Source of the DNA: a virus
IMG/VR virus record: IMGVR_UViG_3300023174_005350
Location: 1-64,000 of that record
Length of the DNA: 64,000 nt
Strand: one strand, 5' to 3'
Under the pieces are notes generated by a model. The model was not told the DNA's origin. It saw only the letters and a list, made by a program, of their open reading frames with translations, and ran no database searches. A program made the position numbers and the translations under genes. Positions 5,043 through 21,230 of the stretch are shown here, piece by piece. Positions within the stretch are counted from its first letter, which is position 1. Each line of letters opens with the position of its first letter.

Positions 5043-5242
5043 GAGATGATATTCCAATTGGAACATTGGTTTCCCTAAGTGGTGAAGACATAGGTATTGT
5101 TGTTGATCATCACTATATAAAAGCTTGGCCGGATGAAAGCGCAGATAACATAAGATATAAAGTTATCTATAAAATCAATATCATCAATAAAAATTTATAT
5201 AAATATTGCTATTCATATGAGATGGTAATATTAAGTGAATAG
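5039..5242 (+). CDS. small 'IGxLV' family protein
   Basis: IPIGTLV...IGIVVD. Confidence 0.55.
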   Translation: MRDDIPIGTLVSLSGEDIGIVVDHHYIKAWPDESADNIRYKVIYKINIINKNLYKYCYSYEMVILSE

Positions 5243-5443: not shown

Positions 5444-5674
5444 ATGAGTCGTAAACTAAATGAATATATATATCCCTATAGAAAAATTAGTATTGGAAGC
5501 TTGGTAGAAGTAAAAATTATCAAACGTACAATAGATATATGCATTGTTACTGATAGAAATACTGGTTTACGAGAGAAAGACCATTGGTATATTGTTCGTA
5601 GCATATTTACCGATAAAGAATATGCCGCTTATCCTAATGAATTAAAAATTCTTAGTGGAGAAGTAGAAGACTAA
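5444..5674 (+). CDS. small 'IGxLV' family protein
   Basis: ISIGSLVEV...ICIVTD; ACTAATTA at 5431. Confidence 0.55.
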   Translation: MSRKLNEYIYPYRKISIGSLVEVKIIKRTIDICIVTDRNTGLREKDHWYIVRSIFTDKEYAAYPNELKILSGEVED

Positions 5675-15260: not shown

Positions 15261-15633
15261 AATAAAACAATATAAAGATAATACATGTAAAGATTATTCT
15301 ATCTCTAAATTATTAAGAGAGCAAAAAAAAAGTAATGATCTTTTTGAAACAATGCTTTGTAATATAAGTCTTGAAGATATAATAGCATTAAGACTAGAGT
15401 TGGCTTATAAATCAATTGGCGTAAGATTATATGGCTTTCCAATATGGAGAAGCACTAATTATATTGTTCAAGAAGCTTTATTAAAGTATGCAGTATCTAT
15501 AAGTACTTCTAAAGGTGAAGCGGCTAGATATCTTGGATTAAATGTTGATAAATTTATTAAATTTCTAAAAAAATATAAAATAGATACTTATTTTAAGAGG
15601 AAAGTAAATGCTGATCACCGAAACACAACTTAA
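15232..15633 (+). CDS. protein with C-terminal Fis-type HTH
   Basis: LKYAV...SKGEAARYLGL...LKKYKI. Confidence 0.55.
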   Translation: MTVLKTHLSKIKQYKDNTCKDYSISKLLREQKKSNDLFETMLCNISLEDIIALRLELAYKSIGVRLYGFPIWRSTNYIVQEALLKYAVSISTSKGEAARYLGLNVDKFIKFLKKYKIDTYFKRKVNADHRNTT

Positions 15634-16183
15634 AAAGATTTATCCTAATATAAAAAAAGATAAACTAGAATTATATGTTAAAGCTTTTAATAATGTTTTT
15701 CCTTCCTATGGCATCAATACCTCTAGACGGATTGCTGCTTTTCTTGGACAAGTTGGGGTCGAAAGCGGAGAACTCAAATACGACAAAGAACTAGCATCAA
15801 AATATAATAAAAAAGATCCTAGTAATCGATTTGAATCCGTTGGAACTTTATACGAAGGAAGAAAGAATTTAGGTAATACACAAGTTGGTGACGGTCCTAA
15901 ATTTATTGGTCGTGGCATTCTCCAATTAACTGGAAGAGCTAACTATGAAAGCATGTCTAAAATACTAGGAATTGATTTAGTTAATAATCCTGAATTAGCA
16001 TGTGATCCAGAAATAAGTACTAAAATTGCTTGTGAATATTTTAAAAAACGTGGATTATTAGAATTAGCTGACGAATGGAATCTTGATGAAATTACTCGTA
16101 GAGTTAATGGTAATGCAAAATTACATCACGATATAAGAGTTAAATATAGTGAGGCTGCTTTGAAAGTTTTAGATATTAAATAG
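15608..16183 (+). CDS. GH19 (chitinase-like) endolysin
   Basis: AAFLGQ..ESG, GRKNLGN..GDG.KF.GRG.LQLTGR.NY, TRRVNG. Confidence 0.9.
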   Translation: MLITETQLKKIYPNIKKDKLELYVKAFNNVFPSYGINTSRRIAAFLGQVGVESGELKYDKELASKYNKKDPSNRFESVGTLYEGRKNLGNTQVGDGPKFIGRGILQLTGRANYESMSKILGIDLVNNPELACDPEISTKIACEYFKKRGLLELADEWNLDEITRRVNGNAKLHHDIRVKYSEAALKVLDIK

Positions 16184-16497
16184 TTAATATTAGGTAGTTG
16201 GCTTAAAAGTAGCAATCTTTAATGAGTGAGACAAAATCCTTGGCTAGTAGATATATGTCCGTTAACAGCGGGGAGTTAAGTGTAGTTTGCCCGAAGAAAG
16301 CGCAACAAAACCCGAAGATAGTTGCGTAGACAACAAGCTGATAGGTAAGCTCCAATATATCATAAATCTTGGGGGTTGGGTAATAGGAAAGTCAGATTCG
16401 TTTGATGGGACAGAAATAAACTTAAGATATAATCATTGAAAAGATTGTATTGTTTACTTCCTCCCTCTCTTTGGTGTAGTAACACGCCTAATATTGA
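16184..16497 (+). ncRNA. structured RNA mimicking 23S rRNA H43-H44 (L11-binding GTPase-associated centre) with ~250-nt insert
   Basis: ~11-12-bp closing stem 16184-16195/16486-16497; AGUUGGCUUAAAAGUAGCAAUCUUUAAUGA and GUGUAGUAACAC map onto E. coli 23S 1058-1088 and 1091-1102. Confidence 0.75.
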
Positions 16498-16512
16498 TGT
16501 TGTTAAAAAAAT

Positions 16513-16782
16513 ATGAAAAAAATTAAAATTGGCAAATGGAATTATAGAGTTTTTAAAACTATTAAATCTAATGGCTTAGAAGAATATGGAATAGTCGAAG
16601 TATATTATGATACTAAAGACAATCCAGCCAGTTATACTGATTATCAGATTCCTTGGGGAGAATCTTTAAAAGATTTGAAATGGGAACTTTCTTCTATGTT
16701 AAAATCCTGTAGACAAGATGTATTAACAGAAGAAGATTTTAAACCGAGAAAAAAGAATGCAAGAAAAAAAATGGAAAGATGA
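16513..16782 (+). CDS. hypothetical protein
   Basis: ORF; WNYRV..YGIVEVYYD. Confidence 0.6.
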   Translation: MKKIKIGKWNYRVFKTIKSNGLEEYGIVEVYYDTKDNPASYTDYQIPWGESLKDLKWELSSMLKSCRQDVLTEEDFKPRKKNARKKMER

Positions 16783-16978
16783 AAAAATCTTCTCTTGTTT
16801 TGAAGAAGCAGAACAATATAAAAATACCTTACAAAACTCCCCAGAAGGTGCTACAATGGAGTATAAAATAAAACACAAAGATGGCGTTTTTATTATTAGA
16901 AGCAGAATACATCCAGAACTTATAGAAGCTGTTAAAGAAATAGATGAAAAGCTTTCAAAAAAGAAAGGTAAAATATGA
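16757..16978 (+). CDS. hypothetical protein
   Basis: overlapping operonic ORF. Confidence 0.55.
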   Translation: MQEKKWKDEKIFSCFEEAEQYKNTLQNSPEGATMEYKIKHKDGVFIIRSRIHPELIEAVKEIDEKLSKKKGKI

Positions 16979-17592: not shown

Positions 17593-17603
17593 AGGAAAAT
17601 AAA

Positions 17604-17918
17604 ATGAAGACACTCGTAATGACCGCAGTAGTAGCAGCAATGTTCGTAGGTTGCACTAGCAAGACCTCTGCACCAGCAGCAGGTTCTACTTCCACAACCG
17701 CTCCAGTAGTAGAAGTTTCAGCACCAGCAATCACCACACAAACTTCCCCTTCTGTAGCCGCTCCAGTTGCCCCACAAAGCGCTGTAGTGGCCCCATCAGC
17801 AGGTGGCGCAGCCTCTGCCGCAGCAGCATCTGGTAGTGCCTCTGGAAGCTCCACAGCAGTTTCTACTGGCGCAGCAGGCGCAGTTGCAGCACCAGCAGTA
17901 GCAGCAGATAAGAAGTAA
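17604..17918 (+). CDS. Ala/Ser/Thr/Pro-rich lipoprotein
   Basis: AAGGA SD; MKTLVMTAVVAAMFVG-C lipobox; low-complexity body. Confidence 0.7.
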   Translation: MKTLVMTAVVAAMFVGCTSKTSAPAAGSTSTTAPVVEVSAPAITTQTSPSVAAPVAPQSAVVAPSAGGAASAAAASGSASGSSTAVSTGAAGAVAAPAVAADKK

Positions 17919-17984: not shown

Positions 17985-18506
17985 TTATTGTTTCCATCTA
18001 CCATCTTTGTTTAAGAAGTGGTTTTCCATATGACAAGTAGGACATAATACTTCTAAATTTTCTATAGTATTATTTTCTCTGTTTCTATCTTTATGATGAA
18101 CTTCTAATACTTCTGGTATTTTAGAATAATCGCATTTTTCACATTTTACTGCTTTACTTCTAAAAGCTACATCTCTGTATGCCCTGCCAGCGTTTGTATA
18201 ATGCGGCGGTTGAATTTCTTTTATTCCACCAATTCTTTGAGCGATATCTTTGTGTTCCCTACAGCAAAAATATAAACCGCTTCTTGATATTTTCTTTTTT
18301 GATGGTGCTTTGTAAAACATCTTCTTACAGTAAGCACATTCAACGTTTGGTTGATTAATTAAAGCAAATTTTTCTATTTTTTGTTTTTTTATAGCTTCAT
18401 ATGTACATTTTTTGGTACAATACTTCCCGTTGCCTCTATTTACTTCTGATGAACGTGCTTGAAATTCTTTGTTACAGTTTAAGCATATTTTTAAATATGT
18501 AGTCAT
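17985..18506 (-). CDS. free-standing HNH homing endonuclease with zinc fingers
   Basis: CxxC repeats; EVHHKDRNRENN..ENL.VLCPTCH...H. Confidence 0.85.
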   Translation of the reverse strand: MTTYLKICLNCNKEFQARSSEVNRGNGKYCTKKCTYEAIKKQKIEKFALINQPNVECAYCKKMFYKAPSKKKISRSGLYFCCREHKDIAQRIGGIKEIQPPHYTNAGRAYRDVAFRSKAVKCEKCDYSKIPEVLEVHHKDRNRENNTIENLEVLCPTCHMENHFLNKDGRWKQ

Positions 18507-20639: not shown

Positions 20640-21230
20640 ATGCAAACCACCACCACTACCAACGAAACACTTAATACTCCTGATACTCGTAATATTGTTG
20701 ATAAATATAAATTCGATAGGCTTACTAAATGGACTACAGAATTGATTAAAAAAGACCTTCAACAAAAGTCTTTTCCATTTGCAGTTATGATGGAAAATCT
20801 TGTTGGTGATTTTAATTTGTCTTCTGTTCTGCGTTCTTGTAATGCAATGAATGGTCGTGAAATGTTCTATCTTGGTCGTAAACAATACGATAGACGTGGA
20901 ACCGTTGGGACTCATCACTATACCGATATAATCAATCTAAAGGACCGCGAGGAGCTTCTAAAGTTAAAGGAGCGTTATACTTTTGTTGCACTTGAGAACA
21001 GTGTCCCACAGGCAGAAAGTATTTACGATTTCCAATGGCCTGAGAATCCTCTTATTATCATCGGGGAAGAAGGTGTTGGAATTACTCAAGAGACTCTTGC
21101 ATTGTGTGATAGATTTGTTTATATCAATCAATATGGTAGCGTAAGAAGCATGAATGCAGCAGTAGCTGGAAGTATTGCTATGAATGATTTTGTAATGAAA
21201 TATGTAAAAAATAACAACAACATGCGTTAG
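20640..21230 (+). CDS. SpoU/TrmH-family RNA 2'-O-methyltransferase
   Basis: FNLSSVLRS, IIGEEGVGI, GSVRSMNAAVA SPOUT motifs; TTGACC-17-TATAGT promoter at 20602-20630. Confidence 0.85.
   Translation: MQTTTTTNETLNTPDTRNIVDKYKFDRLTKWTTELIKKDLQQKSFPFAVMMENLVGDFNLSSVLRSCNAMNGREMFYLGRKQYDRRGTVGTHHYTDIINLKDREELLKLKERYTFVALENSVPQAESIYDFQWPENPLIIIGEEGVGITQETLALCDRFVYINQYGSVRSMNAAVAGSIAMNDFVMKYVKNNNNMR

Follow-up and report, generated by a model that had tools for sequence, protein, structure and literature searches.

In an uncultured freshwater phage, the stretch between the endolysin gene and the next open reading frame (ORF) holds no recognisable gene, which raises the question of what is encoded there. 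We examined it within a window of 64,000 nucleotides (positions 1 to 64,000 of the IMG/VR record IMGVR_UViG_3300023174_005350). An earlier note on this DNA had suggested a phage non-coding RNA that rebuilds the GTPase-associated centre (GAC) of 23S rRNA around a long insert. Our analysis strongly supports that the element at 16184-16497 (+ strand, 314 bases) copies the GAC, and it supports the identity of the element as a folded non-coding RNA that would rebuild helices H43-H44 around an insert at positions 1089-1090 (23S positions follow E. coli numbering).

The endolysin gene (15608-16183, stop codon TAG at 16181-16183) encodes a GH19 protein (Pfam PF00182), and the next ORF begins at 16513. 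The intervening gap of 329 bases was indeed free of genes, as had been described, and neither strand holds an ORF of more than 50 aa. Its G+C content was 0.41, compared to about 0.28 in the surroundings, and its + strand folded with a long terminal stem (minimum free energy of -79.6 kcal/mol, z = -2.3). A search of the whole window with Rfam 15 (4227 models) at the gathering score returned two tRNAs only, and a search of 16100-16600 with E values up to 10 showed nothing but noise in the gap. ARAGORN called only tRNA-Ala and tRNA-Ser in the window, and the element was not called as a tRNA or transfer-messenger RNA (tmRNA). No LSU rRNA match at the gathering score was found in the phage record, and the element is flanked by the endolysin gene and a small ORF, not by the rest of 23S domain II. 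No promoter or terminator consensus was found beside the window copy.

We aligned the element with the whole E. coli 23S rRNA (rrlH) using the Smith-Waterman algorithm. The best local match paired 16197-16225 with 23S 1059-1088, which bears out the assignment of the 5' arm to H43, and nearly every member of the family described below gave its best rrlH match at 1055/1059-1088. The alignment score was 33 for the window copy and 43 for the relatives at loci L001 and L018, compared to 21.1 ± 2.0 for 200 shuffles, with a maximum of 27. The match of L018 was ungapped, with 29 of 34 bases identical to 23S. The Rfam model LSU_rRNA_bacteria aligned another member (L267) to model positions 1092-1152, which correspond to the GAC, with an E value of 1.6e-5, which does not reach the gathering score. 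This alignment skipped the insert and had both H43 and the closing helix in register.

On the 3' side, 16474-16485 (GUGUAGUAACAC) corresponds to 23S 1091-1102. The assignment of this hairpin to H44 was initially in doubt because its loop varies within the close clade. An alternative layout that places the insert in the H44 loop, with the stem at the base of the insert (S1) as H44 and a GUGU-NNNN-ACAC extra hairpin, was dropped on the basis of the GUAAUA loop of the wider family and the linkage within a base triple. In the wider family, the loop consensus is GUAAUA/GUAACA, the same as in 23S, and the closing pair is tied to position 1072; the 3' hairpin was therefore assigned to H44, as originally proposed.

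A covariance model built from phage members only (R1) was run on 151 Bacteroidota genomes and matched in 73 of them, always over a 63-67-nt stretch with 34-52 bits. The one match inspected (G001) lay inside a 23S gene at about 1050-1110 (near position 1074), and no insert-bearing copies were found in these genomes with R1. A pattern scan of genome contigs gave chance or weak partial matches only. On the phage's own record, R1 detected this locus only, as two halves (16185-16321 and 16365-16495, E of about 5e-5), and it gave no match on the whole window with default filters; the 234-nt insert exceeds the span of the model.

The window copy could be laid out on the GAC from end to end, with all of its parts on the + strand. 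The closing stem P1, the counterpart of the top of H42 (to G1055-G1056), forms 11 pairs between 16184-16194 (UUAAUAUUAGG) and 16487-16497 (CCUAAUAUUGA); this stem had been predicted, and its pairs covary in relatives. The H43-like hairpin (23S 1057-1080/81) occupies 16195-16218, as placed by the alignment to E. coli 23S 1059-1088 and by the family pair tables. Its lower pairs A16196-U16218 and G16197-C16217 represent 1058-1080 and 1059-1079, respectively, and its upper stem GGCU/AGCA is formed by 16200-16203 with 16211-16214, including one G·A mismatch. The 7-base loop UAAAAGU carries A16205, G16209 and U16210 at the locations of A1067, G1071 and 1072, and U16198 stands for the long-range partner U1060. 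The junction strand UUAAU at 16219-16223 corresponds to 1082-1086, with A16221 and A16222 as A1084 and A1085, and it is followed by the entry into H44 with G16224 (G1087) and A16225 (A1088). The insert begins with the 5' strand of S1 (GUGAGA, 16226-16231), which pairs with 16466-16471. It continues as a 234-nt domain with a predicted three-way junction (16232-16465), recognised by invariant columns and covarying stems, and returns through the 3' strand of S1 (16466-16473), which reads UCUCUU followed by U and G16473 at position 1090. The H44-like hairpin (16474-16486) contains the pairs G16474-C16483 (1091-1100) and U16475-A16482 (1092-1099) and the loop GUAGUA (16476-16481) with A16478 as A1095, followed by A16484, C16485 (C1102) and G16486 (1103). 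C16485 pairs with G16224, and 1056/1103 is G·G. The flipped 1058-1080 pair, the U1060/A1088 combination (U16198/A16225) and the G1087-C1102 pair, to which the earlier note had drawn attention, are thus all present. The copy belongs to a short sub-variant of 27 members in which the 3' strand of lower H43 is one base shorter and 1082/1086 is U·U in 22 of the 27.

Pattern scans of IMG/VR and metagenomes yielded a close clade of 20 distinct sequences. A related endolysin was found at 17 IMG/VR loci, most of which hold the element, with identities ranging from 78-90% down to patchy matches. In the IMG/VR scan, the H43-like motif occurred at 71 loci with U1072 and at at least 120 loci with C, A or G at this position, and the 3' motif alone occurred at at least 118 loci. 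The parsed set comprised 162 distinct complete elements of 107-423 nt (median of 244), a lower bound of the family. All parsed members shared one plan, in which the P1 closing stem, a copy of H43, a variable stem-closed insert, a copy of H44 and the 3' strand of P1 follow one another, and none of the 162 contained flanking 23S sequence. The 5' consensus consists of a variable P1, then GG-NN-GU-N-(4-bp stem)-U-R-NNN-G-Y-(stem)-AUC-N-UUUAAAGAGU, and the 3' consensus reads YUUURG-Y-GUAAYA-R-CAC, then the 3' strand of P1.

Covariation was scored on an alignment of 25 short non-redundant members (A2) on which the GAC secondary structure was imposed. Standard pairs filled 95.3% of the pair cells, compared to 66.6% with shuffled 3' partners and 40-53% when the partners were slid by 1-3 columns. 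The covariation score was 0.739, compared to 0.194 for shuffled partners (0 of 500 reached the observed value) and 0.135-0.195 for slid partners. Changes on both sides were found in 19 of 25 pairs, including all nine scored pairs of P1, and helix 2 of H43 was 97.7% paired with four pairs changed on both sides. The counts over the 162 elements gave the same picture for single pairs: 1055-1104 was G-C in 122 and A-U in 27, 1057-1081 was A-U in 131 and C-G in 9, 1058-1080 was U-A in 56, G-C in 38, A-U in 31 and C-G in 7, and 1064-1074 was C-G in 139, A-U in 17 and G-C in 5. Position pair 1087-1102 was G-C in 152, the junction pair 1082-1086 was U-A in 87, C-G in 25 and A-U in 15, and the 1056/1103 mismatch was G·A in 81, A·A in 52 and G·G in 18.

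For the GAC itself, structures from E. coli and Haloarcula (H. marismortui) have been described, with tertiary features that include the junction mini-hairpin U1082-A1086 closing A1084/A1085 (PMC2952862). The base triple of 1072 with 1092-1099 showed linkage across the insert. Among the 162 members, positions 1072, 1092 and 1099 were U, U and A in 91, C, C and G in 65, U, U and G in 4, and C, U and A in 2, and U1072 was never combined with C-G. At the loci retrieved by the 5' motif only, all 33 with U1072 had U1092, and 64 of the 65 with C1072 had C1092; the Fisher test gave p = 3e-25 without a correction for kinship. The concerted change of C1072/C1092-G1099 to U16210/U16475-A16482 that had been noticed in the window is one of two linked states of the family. 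Two insert classes each contain both states, as does one cluster of 76% identity, indicating that the switch occurred more than once.

Other partners were invariant. U1060 and A1088 were both present in 162 of 162 members, which leaves no possibility of covariation, and position 1060 was fixed by some search patterns. G1071 and G1091-C1100 were likewise invariant at positions fixed by the parsing patterns, and A1084/A1085 were invariant in the parsed set with both fixed by the 5' parsing pattern. Among G1071, G1091-C1100 and U1060/A1088, only A1088 adds much, because most of the others were fixed by retrieval or parsing patterns and A1088 by one only. In the H44 loop (G-U-A-R-Y/A-A in the family), A1095 was kept in 89 of 98 members sampled without a constraint on the 3' half. 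A1098, a free position in the parsing pattern, was kept in 161 of 162, and G1091, G1093 and C1100 were fixed by the pattern. These comparisons show, at the level of sequence, that the predicted RNA is conserved and that its helices and GAC-specific tertiary partners covary, as expected for the H43/H44 pairs and the triple.

Members of the family were found in several cultured phages. Pseudomonas putida phage pf16 carries an unannotated member between tRNA-Asn and tRNA-Pro (R1 score of 90 bits, E = 1e-21), Cronobacter phage GAP32 carries another (R1 score of 83 bits), and unannotated members also occur in Aeromonas phage 4_4572 and Acinetobacter phage ME3. Judging from the H43-like motif alone in blastn searches, a member is also probable in Ralstonia RSP15, Xanthomonas XacN1, Serratia BF, Pectobacterium CBB and the Erwinia jumbo phages, and Prevotella Lak megaphages carry a 390-nt homologue of one insert class. 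The window element itself had no match by blastn in the INPHARED phage collection. We also considered the T4 rnaC/rnaD RNAs (species 1 and 2, at the end of the tRNA array, L487:2909-3172) as members and rejected them, the best R1 hit having an E value of 0.16 and lying elsewhere in the locus. On one viral contig of 174 kb (L311), a GAC-like element at 5135-5155 is followed on the same strand by another at 5453-5473, at a distance of 318 nt.

The upstream neighbour of the element varies. It is the endolysin stop codon in the window, L001 and L004, a tRNA array Thr-Ile-Leu-Gly in L002, L003 and L006, and tRNA-Leu in L026. In L008 (3563-3908), L018 (6844-7132) and L020 (2311-2600), the element lies directly 3' of a phage tmRNA gene, with the tags ANDNVELSDYALAA and VNDDVEFESYALAA. 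A promoter-like TTGACA-N17-CATACT site was seen by eye just upstream of the element in L016, L018 and L020. For 63 of 162 elements, a tRNA or tmRNA gene lay no more than 50 nt away, compared to 31 expected by random placement in the same tRNA-rich loci, and all 84 elements within 200 nt of such a gene were on the same strand as that gene.

An isolated GAC of 58-60 nt folds by itself, and L11 binding requires only the folded GAC; A1095 contacts cofactors and makes no tertiary contact in the rRNA domain (PMC6239185). On the model that we propose, the 5' 42 nt and the 3' 24 nt would join as a self-closed replica of the GAC (E. coli 1051-1108), and a lineage-specific structured domain would project from the H44 arm, at the location of A1089-A1090 in rRNA. 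The RNA would be released from phage transcripts by the same enzymes that process the adjacent tRNAs, adopt the compact GAC fold and bind, off the ribosome, what the real GAC binds. Host uL11 would be the first candidate, since uL11 recognises the folded domain and no uL11 gene was found in the phage record, which is estimated to be 41% complete (no MazG gene was found in it either). Translation GTPases or RelA may be engaged through uL11 and the kept A1095, and the phage would thereby titrate or redirect part of the host translation or stringent-response machinery, with the insert perhaps adding a lineage-specific function or partner. We consider it somewhat more probable than the contrary that a stable phage RNA imitates the GAC off the ribosome and binds host uL11, diverting uL11, translational GTPases or RelA. 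A broader version is possible, and we put it forward tentatively: a takeover device of phages infecting many phyla, in which a ribonucleoprotein processed from tRNA arrays and built on the GAC replica would capture uL11, so that ribosomes would be stripped or starved of it, and by way of uL11 also RelA or the GTPases, disarming the stringent response or re-tuning elongation, with the inserts as effector or targeting modules.

Several observations weigh against uL11 capture by a GAC replica. In the window copy, the G16200·A16214 mismatch falls at 1062-1076 of the H43 stem, and 1082/1086 is a U·U combination (16219/16223). In the family, A1067 was replaced by G in 30 of 45 members sampled without a constraint on the 5' half, positions 1068-1070 were variable, and 1090/1101 never formed a standard pair (G·A in 144 and A·A in 18 of 162). 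A second insertion in H43 of three members (L003, L014 and L050) lies near the presumed L11 site. The inserts fall into several conserved classes, while a plain uL11 sponge needs no insert. The evidence for expression was weak: in one river metatranscriptome run, a 255-nt contig of a close relative covered 16226-16398, nothing reliable came from the flanking genes in the same run, and the contig carried no information on level, ends or strand. The obligatory insert in several classes, the frequent G1067 and the non-standard 1090/1101 are not explained by a replica that captures uL11. As to G1067, the 23S rRNAs of three Bacteroidota genomes (L463, L464 and L466) have G1067, a GUAACA loop in H44 and an extra U after U1078, and 26 of 32 phage members with G1067 have C1097. 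Members with G1067 and C1097 may track the host 23S, which we treat as a lead only; the H44 loop of the Prevotella Lak-phage homologue (L488) is GUAGAGU, unlike that of Bacteroidota 23S.

The imitation could also serve the host ribosomes instead of depriving them. The RNA would then be a decoy or tight inhibitor for an enzyme that attacks the GAC (a defence toxin or a toxin of a competitor, such as an RNase, ADP-ribosyltransferase or methyltransferase) or for a thiopeptide-like compound, and host ribosomes would keep translating, by analogy with the phage tRNAs that replace tRNAs cut by defence systems. The location of members in phage tRNA arrays and the retention of A1095, a functional base unneeded for folding, are consistent with such a role. 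Nucleases that cut tRNA or rRNA in defence are an emerging theme (bioRxiv 10.64898/2026.07.14.738597), and phage RNA mimicry reported to act against abortive infection provides a precedent (PMC3475682). However, no defence system directed at H43/H44 is named in the papers that we consulted, a stoichiometric decoy is poorly suited against an enzyme that turns over, and an attacker just as widespread would be required to account for a family spread so widely over phages of many hosts. A decoy would also leave the insert unexplained, and we regard this explanation as unlikely.

Every member carries its insert at 1089/1090, with a length of about 40 to more than 400 nt on a constant frame. In the window clade, S1 changes from GAGA/UCUC to GCGG/CCGC in relatives, and all four S1 pairs change on both sides in A2. 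The first strand of the three-way junction of the window insert is an invariant CAAAAU in the clade alignment (A1). The stem S2 (16238-16241 with 16372-16375) closes the 5' sub-domain, and its partners covary among U-G, U-A, A-U and C-G as judged by eye in relatives. The invariant strand UUGGGUAAUA of A1 follows at 16376-16385, and the stem S3 (16386-16389 with 16458-16461) closes the 3' sub-domain. Twelve relatives keep the inner stems at 16250-16256/16355-16361, 16272-16275/16350-16353, 16300-16306/16321-16327 and 16429-16434/16443-16448, and several of these stems show changes on both strands. Of the insert stems listed in the earlier note, GATATAT/ATATATC and GCGCAAC/GTTGCGT (with changes on both sides) as well as ATAATC/GATTGT were kept in these relatives, whereas AGGAAAGT/ACTTCCT held for the first four pairs only. 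The insert class of the window clade is marked by the invariant strands CAAAAUCC and GGUUGGGKAAUAGGA, and other classes are marked by UUGCGAG or GAAUCG. The second insertion mentioned above (L003:4269-4614, L014:4599-4910 and L050:1433-1759) lies between U1078 and C1079 in the 3' strand of the H43-like hairpin and is made up of two hairpins, first a small UCC-GNRA-GGA one and then a longer one, so the GAC-like frame tolerates two insertion sites.

Such conserved classes, covarying stems and a wide range of lengths on one frame would be understandable if the GAC fold were a chassis only, that is, a compact nuclease-resistant clamp, perhaps capped by uL11, and the insert were the working part, differing by lineage. 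Nevertheless, the smallest member (L153) has 107 nt in all and only a short insert the size of a hairpin, selection keeps A1095, a base that does not serve folding, and a simple GC clamp would be cheaper than a 58-nt tertiary domain. The GAC fold as a mere chassis appears improbable to us, and a GAC replica that would bind uL11, with an insert that would add a lineage-specific function or partner, remains the reading that we prefer.

The gene downstream of the window element suggests a different kind of role. The ORF at 16513-16782 (+ strand, 89 aa) matches phrog_21321 (PHROG, E = 6e-8), and by tblastn synteny an ORF of this family starts 8-40 nt after the element in 11 of 11 relatives of the sub-clade, frequently as two paralogues in tandem (in the window, 16513-16782 and 16757-16978). 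The AF2 model of the 89-aa protein was confident (pLDDT of 86.8), and no fold match was found in the Protein Data Bank (PDB; best Foldseek E of 0.27, best Z of 2.7 in a wide VIA-align search). The element could be a cis-acting leader that controls this ORF through protein binding, by analogy with the leaders of ribosomal-protein operons that imitate rRNA, and the 3' strand of P1 does end 15 nt before the start codon. Outside the sub-clade, however, a tRNA, another gene or nothing conserved lies downstream, certain members are preceded by a promoter-like site of their own and have unrelated genes behind them, and no ribosomal-protein gene was found nearby. We regard control of the ORF as very unlikely. 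A bare SpoU-family methyltransferase gene at 20640-21230 (PF00588, E = 6e-24) was considered as an enzyme partner of the RNA. It was rejected as a general partner, without general co-occurrence with the RNA family: among the loci of relatives, the gene was present only in the three close relatives L072, L020 and L043, and a general link is thus unsupported. Elsewhere in the window, a G+C-rich island at 17600-17900 (0.52-0.59, compared to about 0.30 around it) lies just upstream of an HNH endonuclease gene (17985-18506, - strand), and the ORFs across it had no Pfam match.

Genuine 23S fragments do occur in some phage records, but a functionless scrap of captured host rRNA, or a chance resemblance, is hardly credible here. 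Compensatory changes maintain the fold in no fewer than 162 distinct sequences, all of which have a closing stem and an insert foreign to rRNA, flanking 23S sequence is found in no member, and the covariation contradicts such an origin. As for those records, that of Paenibacillus phage Pd_22F (L485, MZ092003.1, 83277-84712) contains genuine 23S rRNA sequence, and several INPHARED records of 2-7 kb listed as phages (e.g., OR845016.1, OR847528.1 and KM209255.1) are probably 23S fragments, judging from their size, the motif match and one 23S annotation. The 23S sequence in both looks like host contamination or packaged host DNA.

The RNA family is new to the databases and literature that we searched. 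No description was found in full-text literature searches, no annotation was present in the GenBank records inspected, and no Rfam family matches, GOLLD and ROOL included, which answers the Rfam comparison that had been called for. The family is common: phage contigs in their hundreds, of lake, gut and soil origin, contain it, as do cultured phages of Pseudomonas, Cronobacter, Acinetobacter and Aeromonas, and it offers an explanation for gaps left unannotated in the tRNA arrays of many phages. It also provides natural variants of a classic RNA-folding model, among them the U·U-A form of the triple and a site that tolerates an insertion, and it opens a directly testable question, namely how phages deal with uL11, the translation factors and the stringent response of the host. 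Should the fold and the binding be borne out, it would be the first known case of an entire functional centre of the ribosome copied in a free-standing RNA.

Among known systems, GOLLD and ROOL are encoded by phages or prophages, often lie beside tRNA genes and are highly structured, with unknown function. The phage RNA differs from them in architecture, does not match their Rfam models and has an identifiable core derived from rRNA. Leaders of ribosomal-protein operons, such as the L10 leader (RF00557) and the L1-binding leader of the L11 operon, likewise reproduce a protein-binding site of rRNA in an RNA off the ribosome. However, they are cis-acting 5' leaders in cellular genomes that copy a small motif, whereas the phage RNA stands alone, occurs in tRNA arrays and reproduces a whole tertiary domain; the window element has no ribosomal-protein gene nearby and matches no Rfam leader family. 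To our knowledge, no uL11-binding RNA mimic has been described. Decoy or mimic RNAs also imitate nucleic-acid binding surfaces, with 6S RNA as a promoter mimic bacterial Y RNAs as tRNA mimics (PMC4201824) and phage pseudo-ToxI (PMC3475682) as examples. The object that the phage RNA would imitate is, in contrast, a functional centre of the ribosome. The closest counterpart is the bacterial 23S GAC itself (the top of H42, H43 and H44; E. coli 1051-1108), the 58-60-nt domain bound by uL11 and thiostrepton. The phage RNA shares with it the three-helix plan, a near-identical H43 sequence, the frame of the 7-base H43 loop and the H44 hexaloop GUAAUA/GUAACA. At the level of the bases, the likeness extends to the invariant U1060/A1088, the positions of a putative 1082-1086 mini-hairpin with A1084/A1085, G1071 with G1091-C1100, and the triple of 1072 with 1092-1099 as C·C-G or U·U-A. 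Compared to the 23S GAC, the phage RNA often has G at A1067, is free at 1068-1070 and has G·A or A·A at 1090/1101, and it is a free-standing, phage-encoded version of the domain with its own variable closing stem and an insert always at 1089/1090.

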